64,000 bases of DNA from Escherichia coli. GTDB lineage: Bacteria; Pseudomonadota; Gammaproteobacteria; Enterobacterales; Enterobacteriaceae. The translations under genes were made by a program, and so were the position numbers. The stretch lies in assembly GCF_003334355.1 (NCBI RefSeq), contig NZ_QOWP01000009.1, one strand, 5' to 3'. Of this stretch, positions 19,986 through 33,647 are shown piece after piece (the stretch's first letter is position 1; the number at the start of each line of letters is the position of its first letter). Under the pieces are notes generated by a model. That model did not search any database. It was not told the DNA's origin and saw only the letters and a program-made list of their open reading frames with translations.

Positions 19986-22451
<2,466 letters not shown>

Positions 22452-22465
22452 TTTCACTAATAAAT

Positions 22466-22497
22466 AGAACGGGGCCAAAGGGTCCCGTTTTTTTCGC
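22466..22497 (+). terminator. intrinsic terminator of the glg operon (AACGGGGCCAAAGGGTCCCGTT + T7)
   Basis: Hairpin plus run of 7 T immediately after the glgP stop. Confidence 0.7.
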
Positions 22498-22566
22498 CAT
22501 CATTTCGGAAAAGTGTCCAGAAGGGGCAAGGGGACTCGGGGAGTATAATTTCGCCATTCAGAAAGA

Positions 22567-22983
22567 ATGGAAAGAATAATGCAAAACAGAAAATGGATTT
22601 TGACCTCGCTGGTAATGACTTTTTTCGGCATCCCCATTCTGGCGCAGTTTTTGGCGGCGGTTATTGCCATGCTGGGTGTCGGACTTGCCGGTATTATTGA
22701 AGTTTGTAATATCTTTATCACGCCAACAATTTACCTTCTGCTCAACGTCTTTATGCTGACGCTGGGGGCGATAATAATATTTTTCTCTGGTCGCGTGTGG
22801 GCCGGTGATAGCGCGCCAGAAAACAGAGAAATAGCCGTCTGGCGGCAATGCTTTTTTCTCTTACCCGCGCTATTAACCCTGGTTGGCTGGATAATCACGC
22901 TACATCTGGCAGATTATCAATTTCGCCAGATGGGAGCTGGTTGGTTGGCAAACCTTATGCTTCCCTGGTTGGCGTTTTTTTAG
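22567..22983 (+). CDS. hypothetical small polytopic membrane protein (138 aa, about 4 predicted TM segments)
   Basis: ORF track; strongly hydrophobic helices (ILTSLVMTFFGIPILAQFLAAVIAMLGVGLAGII...); ends at TAG 22981-22983; not recognised as a named family. Confidence 0.5.
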   Translation: MERIMQNRKWILTSLVMTFFGIPILAQFLAAVIAMLGVGLAGIIEVCNIFITPTIYLLLNVFMLTLGAIIIFFSGRVWAGDSAPENREIAVWRQCFFLLPALLTLVGWIITLHLADYQFRQMGAGWLANLMLPWLAFF

Positions 22984-23012
22984 TCTCATTAGTGGGTGGT
23001 GAGTACTGGTGG

Positions 23013-24083
23013 ATGGTCATTATTCCCGTTGGGGCGCATATCAGTTTTTCGCTGGGATACGCCTGGCCGACCAGATATCCTTTATCCGGCACGTCCGGAC
23101 TACGTTGCCGTAACTTACTCCTGTTTCTACTTCTCTTACTTGGTATTGTCGCCGGGTATCAGGCCCATTTATATAAGCAGCAAAATCCTGGTGTCGGTGT
23201 ACGCGAAAATATTGATATCTGGGCCTGGCGACCCGATAAACTCAATAATCGACTGACGCCGCTGCGTGGCAAACCGCAAATTCAGTTTAGGCAAAACTGG
23301 CCGCGAATCGATGGCGCCACGGCTGCGTACCCAATTTATGCTTCTGCATTTTATGCATTAAGTGTAATACCAGAGGATTTTCACGTTTGGGATTATCTGG
23401 AAAACTCTCGTACGCCAGAAGCATATAACAAAATCGTTAAGGGCGATGCTGATATTATTTTCGTGGCGCAACCTTCCGGTGGGCAAAAAAAACGTGCAAA
23501 GGAATCTGGTGTCACTTTGCTGTACACCCCCTTTGCCCGTGAAGCATTCGTTTTCATCGTCAATGCGGATAATCCGGTTAATTCCCTGACTGAACAACAG
23601 GTGCGTGACATTTTCAGTGGTGCAATTACCAATTGGCGTGCTGTTGGCGGTAACGATCAGGAGATCCAGACCTGGCAGCGCCCGGAAGACTCTGGCAGCC
23701 AGACAGTGATGCAATCACAGGTCATGAAAAATGTCCGCATGATCTCGCCGCAGGAAACGAAAGTGGCAAGCGTGATGGAGGGAATGATTAAAGTCGTTGC
23801 CGAATACCGTAATACAAACAACGCAATAGGCTATACCTTCCGCTATTACGCGACGCAAATGAATGCTGATAAAAATATAAAATTGCTAGCGATTAACGGT
23901 ATTACACCGACGGCGGAAAACATTCGCAACGGCAAATATGCGTACATCGTCGATGCATTTATGGTGACGAGAGAAAATACAACGTCAGAAACACAAAAAC
24001 TGGTCGAATGGTTTTTAACGCCGCAGGGGCAGAGTCTGGTAGAAGATGTGGGATATGTGCCGCTGTATCCAACAATGGAATAA
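23013..24083 (+). CDS. PstS-family (phosphate-binding-protein-like, PBP_like_2) periplasmic binding protein with N-terminal hydrophobic anchor; start uncertain (ATG 23013 or GTG 22992)
   Basis: ORF track 22848..24083 (its first ~48 codons overlap the upstream membrane ORF out of frame and are discounted). Motifs DGATAAYPIYASAFYAL, RPEDSGSQ, AIGYTFRYYA, LLAINGITPTAENIRNG parallel PstS GAGATFPAPVY / RADGSGTS / AIGYVEYAYA / PTEENF. Confidence 0.7.
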   Translation: MVIIPVGAHISFSLGYAWPTRYPLSGTSGLRCRNLLLFLLLLLGIVAGYQAHLYKQQNPGVGVRENIDIWAWRPDKLNNRLTPLRGKPQIQFRQNWPRIDGATAAYPIYASAFYALSVIPEDFHVWDYLENSRTPEAYNKIVKGDADIIFVAQPSGGQKKRAKESGVTLLYTPFAREAFVFIVNADNPVNSLTEQQVRDIFSGAITNWRAVGGNDQEIQTWQRPEDSGSQTVMQSQVMKNVRMISPQETKVASVMEGMIKVVAEYRNTNNAIGYTFRYYATQMNADKNIKLLAINGITPTAENIRNGKYAYIVDAFMVTRENTTSETQKLVEWFLTPQGQSLVEDVGYVPLYPTME

Positions 24084-25918: not shown

Positions 25919-27424
25919 TCACGACGCCAGCGACAGCTTCTGCTGCGTATACTCCACCAGCCACTGACTCACACGAGATTGTTGATCCGCATTTAGCCAC
26001 ATGCCTTGTTTTGTGCGACGCCACAGGGCGTCGTCGGCGCGGCGGACCCATTCGTGATCCACCAGGTATTTCAGCTCCGCTTCGTAGAACTCATGACCGA
26101 AATCTTCCCCGAGATCGCTTACCGTTCCCGCATTGCCGAGCAGCAGCTCGCTGTTGCTGCCGTAAGTGCGAGCGTAATGACGCGCCAGCGATTCAGTCAG
26201 GAACGGATAGCGGCGGCGCAGGCGAGCGGCATAATCGTCGCGGTCGCCTTCAATGGCGCCACCCGGTAGCACACTCTCTTTCGTCCATGCCGGGCCAATA
26301 CCCTGATAATACGGCGTTAGTTTTTCCAGCGCATGTTCCGCCAGTTTTCGGTAGGTGGTCAGCTTACCGCCGAATACCGACAGCAGCGGTGCTTTGCCAT
26401 TTTCATCATGAATATCAAGGGTGTAATCACGGGTAATAGCCTGCGGCGAGTCGGACTCATCATCACACAGCGGACGCACACCGGAGTAGGTCCAGACGAT
26501 ATCGTCACGGCTTAACTGCTTTTTAAAGTGCGTGTTATACACATTCAGCAGGTAATTGATTTCACTCTCTTCAATCTTCACCGCTTTCGGATCGCCTTTG
26601 TACTCGACATCGGTAGTGCCGATGATGGAAAACTCGTCCATCCACGGGATCACGAACACAATACGTTTATCTTCGTTTTGCAGAATGTAGGCTTGCTTCT
26701 GGGTATGCACGCGCGGCACCACAATATGGCTGCCTTTGATCAGGCGAATGCCATAAGGCGAAGGCAGATGCATCCCGTCGTCGAAGAACTGTTTCACCCA
26801 CGGGCCGGTGGCGTTAACCAAGCCGCGCGCTTGCCAGCTATATTTTTTGCCGGTATCGATATCTTCCGCTTCCACAATCCACAGGCCGTTTTCGCGGCGA
26901 GCAGAGGTGGCGCGAGTCCGAGTAAGCACTTCGCCGCCTTTACGCACCACCATCTGGGCGTTGGCGAGTACCAGACGGGCGTCGTCTACCCAACAGTCAG
27001 AATATTCGAATCCGCGCTTAATTTCCGGTTTTAACACTGAATTTGCGCCAAAACGCAAACCAGTTGATCCCGGCAAGCTGGTGCGTTTACCCAGATGATC
27101 GTACATAAACAGACCAATGCGAATCATCCACGCCGGGCGCAGATGCGGACGATGTGGCAGGCGAAAACGCATCGGGAAGGCGATATGCGGGGCCATTTTC
27201 AGCAGCACTTCACGTTCAGCCAGCGCCTCGCTGACCAGGCGGAATTCATAGTGCTCAAGGTAGCGCAGGCCACCGTGAATGAGTTTTGAACTGGCGGAAG
27301 AGGTCGCGCAAGCGAGATCCTGCGCCTCCAGCATCAGCACGGATAAACCGCGTCCAGCGGCGTCTGCCGCGATACCAGCACCATTGATGCCGCCCCCTAT
27401 CACAATCAGATCTTTGGTTTCCAT
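25919..27424 (-). CDS. glpD: aerobic sn-glycerol-3-phosphate dehydrogenase (501 aa)
   Basis: ORF track 25919..27439; ATG at 27424 gives METKDLIVIGGGINGAGIAADAAGRGLSV (FAD-binding fold). Confidence 0.97.
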   Translation of the reverse strand: METKDLIVIGGGINGAGIAADAAGRGLSVLMLEAQDLACATSSASSKLIHGGLRYLEHYEFRLVSEALAEREVLLKMAPHIAFPMRFRLPHRPHLRPAWMIRIGLFMYDHLGKRTSLPGSTGLRFGANSVLKPEIKRGFEYSDCWVDDARLVLANAQMVVRKGGEVLTRTRATSARRENGLWIVEAEDIDTGKKYSWQARGLVNATGPWVKQFFDDGMHLPSPYGIRLIKGSHIVVPRVHTQKQAYILQNEDKRIVFVIPWMDEFSIIGTTDVEYKGDPKAVKIEESEINYLLNVYNTHFKKQLSRDDIVWTYSGVRPLCDDESDSPQAITRDYTLDIHDENGKAPLLSVFGGKLTTYRKLAEHALEKLTPYYQGIGPAWTKESVLPGGAIEGDRDDYAARLRRRYPFLTESLARHYARTYGSNSELLLGNAGTVSDLGEDFGHEFYEAELKYLVDHEWVRRADDALWRRTKQGMWLNADQQSRVSQWLVEYTQQKLSLAS

Positions 27425-27535
27425 GCTGCCCTCATTCACTTTCGTTAAAGCTCATAAATGTTCGTTATCGAACATATTAGCAAAGAATCGCGCTTTAGGT
27501 AACATTGAAAAAACATTTTAGAGTGATATGTATAA

Positions 27536-27940
<405 letters not shown>

Positions 27941-27972
27941 CGCTTTATACTGTCCCCTTTTGTGTGGAATAA

Positions 27973-28815
<843 letters not shown>

Positions 28816-28831
28816 TTCCAGGGATTTATAA

Positions 28832-29590
28832 ATGAAACAAACACAACGTCACAACGGTATTATCGAACTGGTTAAACAGCAGGGTTATGTCAGTACCGAA
28901 GAGCTGGTAGAGCATTTCTCCGTCAGCCCGCAGACTATTCGCCGCGACCTCAATGAGCTGGCGGAGCAAAACCTGATCCTGCGCCATCATGGCGGTGCGG
29001 CGCTGCCTTCCAGTTCGGTTAACACGCCGTGGCACGATCGCAAGGCCACCCAGACCGAAGAAAAAGAGCGCATCGCCCGCAAAGTGGCGGAGCAAATCCC
29101 CAATGGCTCGACGCTGTTTATCGATATCGGCACCACGCCGGAAGCGGTAGCGCACGCACTGCTCAATCACAGCAATTTGCGCATTGTCACCAACAATCTC
29201 AACGTTGCTAACACGTTGATGGTAAAAGAAGATTTTCGCATCATTCTCGCCGGTGGCGAATTACGCAGCCGCGATGGCGGGATCATTGGCGAAGCGACGC
29301 TCGATTTTATCTCCCAGTTCCGCCTTGATTTCGGCATTCTGGGGATAAGCGGCATCGATAGCGACGGCTCGCTGCTGGAGTTCGATTACCACGAAGTTCG
29401 CACCAAACGCGCCATTATTGAGAACTCGCGCCACGTTATGCTGGTTGTCGATCACTCGAAATTTGGCCGTAACGCGATGGTCAATATGGGCAGCATCAGC
29501 ATGGTAGATGCCGTCTACACCGACGCCCAGCCGCCAGTAAGCGTGATGCAGGTGCTGACGGACCACCATATTCAACTGGAGCTGTGCTGA
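28832..29590 (+). CDS. glpR: glycerol-3-phosphate regulon repressor (DeoR family, 252 aa)
   Basis: ORF track; DeoR-type HTH; synteny. Confidence 0.97.
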   Translation: MKQTQRHNGIIELVKQQGYVSTEELVEHFSVSPQTIRRDLNELAEQNLILRHHGGAALPSSSVNTPWHDRKATQTEEKERIARKVAEQIPNGSTLFIDIGTTPEAVAHALLNHSNLRIVTNNLNVANTLMVKEDFRIILAGGELRSRDGGIIGEATLDFISQFRLDFGILGISGIDSDGSLLEFDYHEVRTKRAIIENSRHVMLVVDHSKFGRNAMVNMGSISMVDAVYTDAQPPVSVMQVLTDHHIQLELC

Positions 29591-31170
29591 TCCTGCAATG
29601 CTTCCCAGGTCAGACCAAAACGCGCCAGGTATTTGCGTAGCCGATCCGCGTCATTGACGCTGGCTTTGCCCTGGCGCGAAACATCAAAAAGCTGTCGTCC
29701 GGCAGCAGAAAGCGACTTTGCCTGGCGGCAGATAGCGATAACGTGTTCCAGTTGCATACGGTCGAAGAGATCGATGTTTTCTGCCTCTGCGCCCAGCAGT
29801 TGCGTAAGCGCGGAGGGACGGCTCTCCTGCCAGTTATAGCGCAGACGGTTTATCTCATCTTCAACCACGTCCAGAGTGATGCGTCCGCTAGTGGCAAAGG
29901 TTGCCATCCGCGTGACGCTGGCAGAAAGCTCGCGAAAGTTACCGCGCCATGTCGCCTGAGGAGATGTTGCAAAGGCCAGCCAGGCACGCCGCGCTTCGGT
30001 GTTAAAACGCACGCTGTCGCCGGTGAGTGAGGCGTGGCGCTCCACTTCATAATCCAGGTTAGGTTCAATATCTTCCTGGCGCTGGCGTAGCCCCGGCAGG
30101 GTGAAGGTCCAGAGATTGATCCGCGCGTACAGATCTTCGCGGAATTTGCCTTCGGCAACCAGCTGGCGCAAATCGCGCACCGTTCCGGCGATAAGCTGAA
30201 AATCACTGCTCACCTGGCGATCGCTGCCAAACGGGTAAAAGGTTTTCTCTTCAATGGCTTTTAGCAGCATTGCTTGTTCGTCTGCGCCCAGTTCGCCAAT
30301 CTCATCAAGAAACAACATTCCGCCGTTGGCGCTGCGTAATAAACCTTCACGAGATTCCCGCGCCCCGGTAAACGCGCCTTTTACATGACCAAACAGCGTC
30401 GACATGGCGGTATCGCCGCGCAGGGTGGCGCAGTTCACTTCCACAAACGCGCCGCTAAACTGACGCCGCGCCTGTTTTAACTCGAAGATGCGTCGCGCCA
30501 GAAATGACTTGCCCGCGCCGGTTGGACCGTTAAGCAGAATCGGCGCGCGGGATTTGATCGCCACTTTTTCGATCTGCTCAATCATGCGGTTGAAGTGGGG
30601 GTTACGCGTGGCAATGCCGGACTTAAGAAAATCAAGCGTTTGCTGGCGTTCCTCGGCAAAGCGGCTGGCGATGGCGTTATAACGGCTTAAATCGAGATCG
30701 ATAATCGTCACTTCACCTGCGCCGCGCGGCTGTTCTTTTTTGCGCGGAGGTGAAGATTGTATCAGCCGGGCGGGCAGGTAACGCGCTTCCGCCAGCAGAA
30801 ACCAGCAAATCTGCGCGACGTGGGTGCCGGTGGTAATGTGAATTAAATAGTCTTCTTTTTCTGGCTGAAACTCGTAACCACGGGCGAAATCATGCAGGCA
30901 AGCGTAAACCTCTTCGAAATCCCACGGGTTATGCAGTTCAATCTCAACGCTCACCACTTCTGTTTCTGGCGAAACGCTGGCGATATCGCGTTTAAGCGTT
31001 TCAAATAGCGAGCGCGAGCGGGCGTCATGCAATAATTCCAGTCGATCGATGACCAACGATTCTTGCTGGCATAAACAGAGTGTCGGAAGCCATTTCGACC
31101 AGCGCTGACTGCCGCGCCCGGCATAATCCAGCACGGTACCGACAAAGCCAAAAGCCACTGTTTTACGCAT
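29572..31170 (-). CDS. rtcR: sigma-54-dependent transcriptional activator of rtcBA (532 aa)
   Basis: ORF track; AAA+ sigma-54 activator motifs ([14 protein letters not shown]); divergent from rtcB; 3' end overlaps glpR by 19 nt. Confidence 0.97.
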
Positions 31171-31304
31171 CTTAGATATCCTTATAAAAGACGATATTTC
31201 ATTATCGGTGAATTGGTTTTGTGGAAAATCTCCGTTTACGGACGTAAAGATTTAACCTATTTAAAAACAATGAATTAAAAAATTAATCTGCTTATTTAAT
31301 TTTC

Positions 31305-31320
31305 TGGCACGACGGTTGCA
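31305..31320 (+). promoter_or_regulatory. sigma-54 (RpoN) promoter of rtcBA: TGGCAC-N5-TTGCA
   Basis: Exact match to the -24 GG / -12 GC consensus about 40 bp upstream of the rtcB start; consistent with adjacent RtcR. Confidence 0.75.
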
Positions 31321-31358
31321 ATTATCACGACAGCAAACAACGAAAAGAGAAAAACAAA

Positions 31359-32585
31359 ATGAATTACGAATTACTGACCACTGAAAATGCCCCGGTAAAA
31401 ATGTGGACCAAAGGCGTGCCGGTAGAAGCCGATGCGCGTCAGCAACTTATTAATACGGCGAAGATGCCGTTTATTTTCAAACACATTGCGGTAATGCCTG
31501 ATGTACACCTGGGTAAAGGTTCCACCATTGGTAGCGTGATCCCGACCAAAGGGGCGATTATTCCGGCGGCGGTGGGCGTGGATATTGGCTGTGGAATGAA
31601 CGCGCTGCGTACCGCGTTAACGGCGGCAGACCTGCCTGAAAACCTGGCAGAGCTGCGTCAGGCGATTGAAACGGCCGTGCCGCACGGGCGTACCACTGGC
31701 CGTTGTAAACGTGATAAAGGCGCATGGGAAAACCCGCCTGTTAACGTCGATGCGAAATGGGCTGAGCTTGAAGCCGGTTATCAGTGGTTAACGCAAAAAT
31801 ATCCCCGTTTCCTGAATACCAATAACTATAAACACCTGGGAACGCTGGGAACCGGTAACCACTTTATTGAAATCTGCCTTGATGAGTCGGAGCAGGTGTG
31901 GATTATGCTGCACTCCGGTTCACGCGGAATTGGTAACGCCATCGGGACTTACTTTATCGATCTGGCACAAAAAGAGATGCAGGAAACGCTTGAGACGTTG
32001 CCGTCGCGTGATCTGGCGTACTTTATGGAAAGTACGGAATACTTTGATGATTACCTGAAAGCCGTGGCCTGGGCGCAGCTTTTTGCCAGCCTTAACCGCG
32101 ATGCGATGATGGAAAACGTGGTAACGGCATTGCAGAGCATTACGCAGAAAACGGTCAGACAGCCACAAACGCTGGCGATGGAAGAGATCAACTGTCACCA
32201 CAACTATGTGCAAAAAGAACAGCACTTTGGTGAAGAGATCTACGTGACGCGTAAAGGCGCGGTGTCTGCGCGTGCTGGTCAATATGGAATTATTCCCGGT
32301 TCGATGGGAGCGAAAAGCTTTATCGTCCGTGGGTTGGGAAATGAAGAGTCGTTCTGTTCGTGCAGCCACGGTGCCGGGCGGGTAATGAGCCGTACTAAAG
32401 CGAAAAAACTGTTCAGCGTGGAAGATCAAATTCGTGCCACCGCGCATGTGGAATGCCGTAAAGATGCCGAAGTGATCGACGAAATCCCGATGGCGTATAA
32501 AGATATTGATGCGGTGATGGCGGCACAAAGCGATCTGGTGGAAGTTATCTACACCCTGCGTCAGGTGGTGTGCGTAAAAGGATAA
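31359..32585 (+). CDS. rtcB: RNA-splicing ligase RtcB (408 aa)
   Basis: ORF track; MNYELLTTENAPVKMWTKGVPVEADARQQL... Confidence 0.98.
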   Translation: MNYELLTTENAPVKMWTKGVPVEADARQQLINTAKMPFIFKHIAVMPDVHLGKGSTIGSVIPTKGAIIPAAVGVDIGCGMNALRTALTAADLPENLAELRQAIETAVPHGRTTGRCKRDKGAWENPPVNVDAKWAELEAGYQWLTQKYPRFLNTNNYKHLGTLGTGNHFIEICLDESEQVWIMLHSGSRGIGNAIGTYFIDLAQKEMQETLETLPSRDLAYFMESTEYFDDYLKAVAWAQLFASLNRDAMMENVVTALQSITQKTVRQPQTLAMEEINCHHNYVQKEQHFGEEIYVTRKGAVSARAGQYGIIPGSMGAKSFIVRGLGNEESFCSCSHGAGRVMSRTKAKKLFSVEDQIRATAHVECRKDAEVIDEIPMAYKDIDAVMAAQSDLVEVIYTLRQVVCVKG

Positions 32586-33605
<1,020 letters not shown>

Positions 33606-33618
33606 TGCAGAGATGTAA

Positions 33619-33642
33619 GCCGGATCTGGCGCGTTATCCGGC
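33619..33642. terminator. REP-like hairpin (GCCGGATCTGGCGCGTTATCCGGC) between convergent rtcA and malT; probable bidirectional terminator
   Basis: Inverted repeat read from the sequence; approximate coordinates. Confidence 0.45.
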
Positions 33643-33647
33643 TAAAC

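Follow-up and report, generated by a model that had tools for sequence, protein, structure and literature searches.

The genes glpR and rtcR of Escherichia coli are read towards each other, and their coding sequences overlap at the 3′ ends. The question raised by this locus is whether such an overlap reflects a regulatory link between the two genes or only the way in which two convergent genes meet, and how two transcripts are ended when nothing separates the genes from which they come. From the evidence set out below, we consider glpR/rtcR to be two real genes that overlap tail to tail in a genuine but unexceptional manner, with a probability of roughly 80%. The overlap itself is already known, being present in every standard annotation; that a single base in the stop codon of the partner gene (TGA versus TAA or TAG) decides between a length of 4 and 19 nt may be previously unremarked.

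The glpR/rtcR Overlap

In the window (the whole stretch of 64,000 nucleotides of E. coli DNA that was analysed) the gene order around the junction is glpE-glpG-glpR on the plus strand, rtcR on the minus strand, rtcB-rtcA on the plus strand and malT on the minus strand. The glpR coding sequence occupies positions 28832–29590 of the plus strand and encodes 252 amino acid residues, as given by both the list of open reading frames and the RefSeq annotation. The rtcR gene, which codes for the sigma-54-dependent activator of rtcBA (532 residues; open reading frame list, RefSeq annotation and Pfam domains), is read on the minus strand from 31170 to 29572. The sequence and the translations place the segment shared by the two genes at 29572–29590, and the 19-nt overlap of convergent genes described in the initial annotation was thus confirmed by the sequence, the open reading frame list and RefSeq. 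It is the sole overlap among the nine convergent pairs of coding sequences of the window, the other pairs being separated by gaps of 28–215 nt.

Each of the two stops lies inside the coding sequence of the partner, as seen from the sequence and the open reading frame list. The glpR stop codon TGA (29588–29590, plus strand) falls across the rtcR codons for Asp527 and Gln528 and is read on the other strand, in the rtcR frame, as part of CAG (Gln528), so that rtcR is not stopped there. The rtcR stop codon TGA, the reverse complement of TCA at 29572–29574 (minus strand; sequence and open reading frame list), is made of the third base of the glpR codon for Ile247 and the first two bases of that for Gln248. 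The shared 19 nt are read as (Ile)-Gln-Leu-Glu-Leu-Cys-stop in GlpR on the plus strand, the preceding residue being His, and as (Asp)-Gln-His-Ser-Ser-Ser-stop in RtcR on the minus strand, with another Gln before the Asp. In 29572–29590 both frames have their third codon positions at the same bases, so that most synonymous changes in glpR are synonymous in rtcR too.

Length of the Overlap in Enterobacteriaceae

A GlpR scan with one genome per species gave 80 Enterobacteriaceae loci. Wherever rtcR stood beside glpR the two genes overlapped, in every locus examined, by 4, 19, 35 or 38 nt. Examination of other enterobacteria, which the initial annotation had proposed as a check on conservation, showed in this way that the overlap recurs across genera with a length that varies between 4 and 38 nt. 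The 19-nt state was present in five Escherichia lineages, two Klebsiella species and Phytobacter (E. whittamii, Escherichia sp. E1V33, E. albertii, K. oxytoca, K. spallanzanii and Phytobacter are listed with it), with TGA as the glpR stop. An overlap of 4 nt was found in a Salmonella-type locus, in which glpR ends in TAA and RtcR has 527 residues, and in Superficieibacter electus and a metagenome locus, both with TAG. The two longest overlaps, of 35 nt in Intestinirhabdus alba and of 38 nt in a Salmonella enterica variant with an RtcR of 536 residues, are each accompanied by an indel that shifts the frame of the RtcR tail.

The triplet that decides between the two shorter states, as it is read from the opposite strand, combines the final base of the GlpR Cys codon with the initial two of the glpR stop. 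The triplet C/T-T-A gives TAG or TAA, a stop in the rtcR frame, whereas C-T-G gives CAG, that is Gln. In the loci with TAA or TAG at the glpR stop (L083, L034 and L093) rtcR stops at that point and the overlap is 4 nt; when glpR ends in TGA, rtcR runs through Gln-His-Ser-Ser-Ser to the TGA supplied by the glpR codons ATT-CAA/G, which adds 15 nt and makes the overlap 19 nt. In Phytobacter glpR uses the synonymous codons CTT and TGT, and the RtcR tail is still QHSSS. As read from the compared sequences, rtcR has no stop of its own before that of glpR wherever it adjoins this gene, so its stop comes from the reverse strand of glpR. The length of 19 nt needs no special explanation, since, with the first possible stop missing, five codons to the next one in the reverse frame are unremarkable.

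The protein sequences on both sides of the junction are in agreement with this description. GlpR ends in QLELC in 81 of the 83 sequences, and the overlapped DNA is kept constant by this C-terminus. In the RtcR family the conserved part ends in ...ARFGLxW and is followed by 6–22 variable residues; the overlapped RtcR residues accordingly belong to the variable tail beyond the last conserved block, after the DNA-binding domain. This tail is presumably a functionless passenger of the glpR sequence. The rtcR gene of Ralstonia has a gap of 181 nt downstream.

The lengths of the overlap are accounted for in this way. With TAA or TAG at the end of glpR the two stops interlock in 4 nt; with TGA, RtcR is five residues longer and the overlap has 19 nt; and small indels in the RtcR tail change its frame and lead to the 35 or 38 nt found elsewhere. 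In Enterobacter sp. kpr-6 (L027), which lacks the rtc genes, it is the stops of glpR and malT that share 4 nt (TTAA), and interlocked stops thus arise at the locus even without rtcR.

Overlaps of this kind form a known class. In E. coli 663 overlapping pairs of adjacent genes have been counted, 75 of them convergent (Huvet & Stumpf 2014, PMC4161906), and gene overlaps, of which the convergent ones make up 7%, have been described as originating by loss or movement of a stop codon (Palleja et al. 2008, PMC2478687), with stop-codon loss as the standard model. The glpR/rtcR pair shares with the convergent pairs of these two studies that both genes are real and conserved, that the overlap is short and that its length is set by the next stop. 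The minimal state of such pairs is the interlocked stop-stop arrangement of 4 nt, and glpR/rtcR differs from them in nothing essential. It illustrates clearly, on a small scale, how overlaps between convergent genes come about and vary in length. The arrangement has a practical side as well: editing the 3′ end of glpR, or deleting glpR, also alters the C-terminus of RtcR, a deletion of rtcR removes the last six glpR codons, and even a clean rtcR deletion changes the sequence downstream of glpR.

Ends of the glpR and rtcR Transcripts

There is no intergenic DNA between glpR and rtcR. In a consensus scan of positions 28700–31400, neither the junction nor its surroundings contained a terminator-like hairpin with a downstream U tract; the scan gave five weak terminator-like sites in 2.7 kb, against 4.2 expected by chance, none of them at the junction, and no promoter-like site. 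Likewise, an Rfam scan of 27000–33000 at E ≤ 1 gave no match. The junction, with no intergenic DNA and no site in the scan, does not correspond to the definition of an intrinsic or bidirectional terminator. In agreement with the initial annotation, there is thus no room for terminators between the two genes, and both mRNAs must cross the stop codon of the partner.

For the glpR strand, an end of transcription has been mapped in published data from K-12 MG1655. Adams et al. (2021; PMC7815308, supplementary file 2) reported a bicyclomycin-sensitive region of Rho termination on this strand, antisense to rtcR, with a score of 8.9 (p = 2.7e-27) and with upstream/downstream coverages of 154/29 without bicyclomycin and 153/256 with it (PMC7815308). 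The best position of this region, MG1655 3,559,514 (minus strand), corresponds to 29924 on the plus strand of the window, 334 nt past the glpR stop; the score is calculated from 800-nt windows and the resolution of this position is coarse. Bicyclomycin-dependent read-through, the mark of a Rho terminator, is therefore seen downstream of glpR in MG1655, and the signal belongs to the "antisense" class of Rho terminators of Adams et al. (2021, PMC7815308), with the particularity that glpR is frameshifted in this strain. The MG1655 gene is a pseudogene (locus L086, 3349–4106) in which a 1-nt deletion near nucleotide 150 leads to a premature stop at about codon 106. About 440 nt of the glpR RNA are thus already untranslated, and the point of Rho action could differ in a glpR+ strain, which matters for any use of MG1655 transcript data at this locus.

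Mapping of 3′ ends by Term-seq had been proposed in the initial annotation as a check on both transcripts. The published MG1655 data set lists no curated Term-seq 3′ end in 3,559,400–3,560,599 and no entry for glpR (PMC7815308), and no discrete ends could be set beside the Rho region. This absence is consistent with diffuse ends or with low expression. The base composition downstream of either stop did not show an apparent C-rich, G-poor signature of Rho loading: in 78-nt windows past the glpR stop the C/G ratio was 0.74–1.37, for a background with a median of 1.0 and a 90th percentile of 1.53.

For the rtcR-sense RNA, the only trace found was a 22-nt RNase III duplex captured with p19 and located at 29123–29144, inside glpR and about 430–450 nt past the rtcR stop (PMC7373196, Table S3). 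Each of its strands was recovered at about 1.1–1.5 reads per million (PMC7373196, Table S3), and this one low-abundance duplex weakly suggests rtcR-sense RNA running into glpR. The statement that the two transcripts are antisense to each other at their 3′ ends consequently holds for the glpR-sense RNA, for which the Rho region lies inside rtcR, while for the rtcR-sense RNA the single duplex gives it weak support. In MG1655, glpEGR transcripts thus continue antisense into rtcR and are ended by Rho a few hundred nucleotides downstream; in the mechanism that we propose, rtcR transcripts would likewise extend antisense into glpR, to be ended by Rho or degraded. The pair could serve as a natural test case for the ending of transcripts of convergent E. 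coli genes that have no intergenic terminator.

A Possible Excludon-Like Coupling

A regulatory reading of the same arrangement is that the glpEGR and rtcR mRNAs, being mutually antisense, affect each other's level, one lowering the other by collision of polymerases or by RNase III cleavage of the duplex. Such a coupling, similar to that of an excludon, would link repression of the glycerol regulon to activation of RNA repair. The layout of the locus agrees with it in several respects, since no terminator lies between the genes, the glpR-sense RNA reaches hundreds of nucleotides into rtcR, an RNase III duplex was captured inside glpR, and every examined locus with rtcR next to glpR has the overlap. 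As the glpEGR RNA must cross, in antisense, the rtcR codons of the DNA-binding domain, and the rtcR RNA must do the same in glpR, the two regulators might dampen each other in cis; if true, this would connect the control of carbon-source use with the response of RNA repair. For convergent genes without terminators such a concept is established (PMC7154746). With the excludon, or overlapping 3′ UTRs of convergent genes (Sesto et al. 2013, reviewed in PMC7154746), glpR/rtcR shares the missing terminator and at least one transcript that reaches far into the partner as antisense RNA; it differs in being often missing in relatives, in its variable length and in double-stranded RNA at the detection floor.

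Several observations make this coupling improbable. The length of the overlap is not conserved (4, 19, 35 or 38 nt), and rtc genes are absent beside glpR from about 70 of the 80 species, some of which keep 3′ remnants of rtcR, which is unexpected for a link of value to the cell. Both glpR and rtcR encode low-abundance regulators, which also counts against it. The duplex signal is at the floor of 1 read per million, and 3′ overlaps averaged 37.9-fold fewer double-stranded RNA reads than 5′ overlaps (PMC7373196). A search of the literature found no paper that treats glpR and rtcR together in such a sense; where both genes are named the overlap is not discussed, and a paper on glpEGR does not mention rtc. 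The resemblance to an excludon is one of layout only, no reciprocal effect being known. Regulatory coupling is not needed to explain either the overlap or the transcript ends, and nothing in the data points to a special mechanism.

A Stem-Loop inside rtcR

The explanation by an ordinary overlap leaves one feature unaccounted for, a stable hairpin in the glpR-sense RNA at 29621–29678 (plus strand), 31–88 nt past the glpR stop, with an outer stem of 9 bp (CGCGCCAGG/CCUGGCGCG). It is located where rtcR encodes the C-terminal DNA-binding helix region (Ser-Arg-Gln-Gly...Tyr-Leu-Ala-Arg). The 140-nt RNA 29551–29690 folds with −56 kcal/mol (z = −4.8), and none of 200 shuffled sequences folded as well, an exceptional value that is due to this long stem-loop. 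On the glpR strand the stem-loop is followed not by a U tract but by AAACAUCAAAAA, and on the rtcR strand it precedes the rtcR stop. Conservation of the stem-loop is confined to Escherichia, in which there is hardly any sequence variation (one G-U change). No covariation supports it, and the pairing is degraded in Klebsiella, Salmonella, I. alba and S. electus.

On the folding predictions, the stem-loop is a candidate for a structure that protects the 3′ end or causes pausing. It might form the functional 3′ end of the glpEGR mRNA, either as a site of pausing or collision or as a block to 3′ exonucleases after termination by Rho, and a structure-based end of this type would amount to a substitute for a terminator hidden in a coding region. 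Its z value of −4.8, its place in the top 0.7% of the 140-nt windows of the 64 kb by stability relative to G+C, and its position 31–88 nt past the glpR stop speak for such a role, and termination by collision assisted by hairpins has been proposed for convergent E. coli genes (bioRxiv 10.1101/2022.10.23.513370). We nevertheless regard this role as unlikely, because the glpR strand has no U tract after the stem, the pairing decays in other genera that have the same gene arrangement, no Term-seq 3′ end is reported at the equivalent MG1655 positions, and about 24 further windows of the 64 kb match it in stability. Moreover, both arms encode conserved residues (SRQG and YLAR), and their partial complementarity, and with it the stem-loop, may be a by-product of the RtcR protein sequence.

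In bidirectional or collision terminators such as ynaJ-uspE (Ju et al. 2019, as presented in bioRxiv 10.1101/2022.10.23.513370) the transcripts also overlap and a hairpin lies near the zone where they meet. As they are presented there, sites of the ynaJ-uspE type are intergenic, with uniform 3′ ends, and Rho-independent, whereas the only termination mapped at glpR/rtcR is Rho-dependent, about 0.3 kb inside the partner gene, and no discrete ends are reported. The combined proposal, in which the two regulators dampen each other in cis and the Escherichia-specific hairpin is an element for the 3′ end of glpEGR embedded in a coding region, is very doubtful.

The Junction in E. coli

The 19-nt overlap is also annotated by RefSeq in strains 214-4, K-12 W3110 and MG1655, in the latter with rtcR at 3558268–3559866 and glpR at 3559848–3560605. 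The window is 100% identical to the locus of strain 214-4 (NZ_CP025840.1, 2,093,870–2,157,869; a 7.2-kb locus was compared), and the annotation coordinates coincide. Part of the region was matched in all the 5,426 complete E. coli genomes, and the 43-nt glpR/rtcR junction was found in 5,424 of them. GlpR orthologues from the 80 Enterobacteriaceae species are 88–98% identical over all 252 residues, and for RtcR there are full-length homologues by the thousand, in which the Pfam domains RtcR and Sigma54_activat are precomputed. That the overlap is an annotation or sequencing error, one of the coding sequences truly ending earlier, is hardly credible. Some long convergent overlaps in databases are misannotated through 3′ extensions (PMC2478687), but no support specific to this locus was found, both stops are read directly from the sequence, the junction is repeated in 5,424 independent complete genomes, full-length orthologues confirm both frames and other genera share the overlap.

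A shorter real C-terminus for one of the proteins, which the initial annotation had considered, was rejected: the first in-frame stops are unambiguous, and both frames agree with those of the orthologues. An RtcR of 527 residues is known in relatives only where glpR ends in TAA, and in that case a 4-nt overlap with glpR remains.

The junction also outlives the rtcR gene itself, since an rtcR 3′ stub that keeps the 19-nt overlap with glpR survives in strains with internal rtc deletions. In E. coli G749 (L087, 2013–2799) the rtcR 3′ stub is fused to an rtcA 3′ stub, and in E. coli 19KM1831 (L089, 2013–2330) rtcR is reduced to a stub and rtcB and rtcA are intact. E. coli RtcR variants of 486–507 residues were numerous in the protein search.

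The rtc Genes between glpR and malT

In 64 loci without rtc genes the 3′ end of malT follows directly after glpR, an order that looks ancestral; the gap between them has a median of about 46 nt and frequently contains a hairpin, REP-like or of another type. In the window, the spacer between rtcA (plus strand) and malT (minus strand) at 33606–33647 has 42 nt and contains a REP-like hairpin (GCCGGATctggcgcgttATCCGGC). This spacer is probably a remnant of the ancestral glpR-malT spacer, situated beyond the rtc genes; given the similar hairpin spacer between rtcA and malT, the rtc genes sit between glpR and that spacer. The block rtcR-rtcB-rtcA thus separates the convergent glpR and malT and immediately adjoins the glpR stop.

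As mentioned above, the rtc genes are not found beside glpR in about 70 of the 80 Enterobacteriaceae species sampled. An rtcR 3′ remnant next to glpR was detected in Enterobacteriaceae UBA5654 (L024) as a tblastn match, and rtcR 3′ remnants after the glpR stop are suggested in K. michiganensis (L048) and K. grimontii (L064) by similarity seen by eye. Together with the deletion variants of E. coli, these remnants indicate that the rtc genes were lost repeatedly and independently. As to their origin, RtcR proteins of betaproteobacteria (Chitinimonas, Chitinolyticbacter, Ralstonia and others) share 70–75% of their residues with the E. coli protein along its full length; this identity, high for the phylogenetic distance, hints at a horizontal acquisition of the rtc genes.

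The rtc cluster is not uniform in its content. In Salmonella-type, Phytobacter and related loci (L083, L092 and L093) a Ro60/TROVE gene (rsr) follows the rtcR promoter region, and in E. coli rtcB is found directly there instead of rsr (window 31170–31359). The content of the cluster varies in this way while the junction with glpR stays.

Other Features of the Window

Between glgP and glpD, within positions 20026–24083 of the window, the IS66-family element ISEc43, with transposase genes at 20472–22897, splits a gene for a PstS-family phosphate-binding protein into two annotated pseudogene halves. Next to it come another gene of the PstS family, which is intact, and one for a hypothetical protein. 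At 995–2173, on the minus strand, tssD is annotated as a "Hcp1 family type VI secretion system effector". Its product of 392 residues is far longer than plain Hcp, perhaps because a domain extends the Hcp at its C-terminus; the gene overlaps the downstream yrhA by 4 nt.
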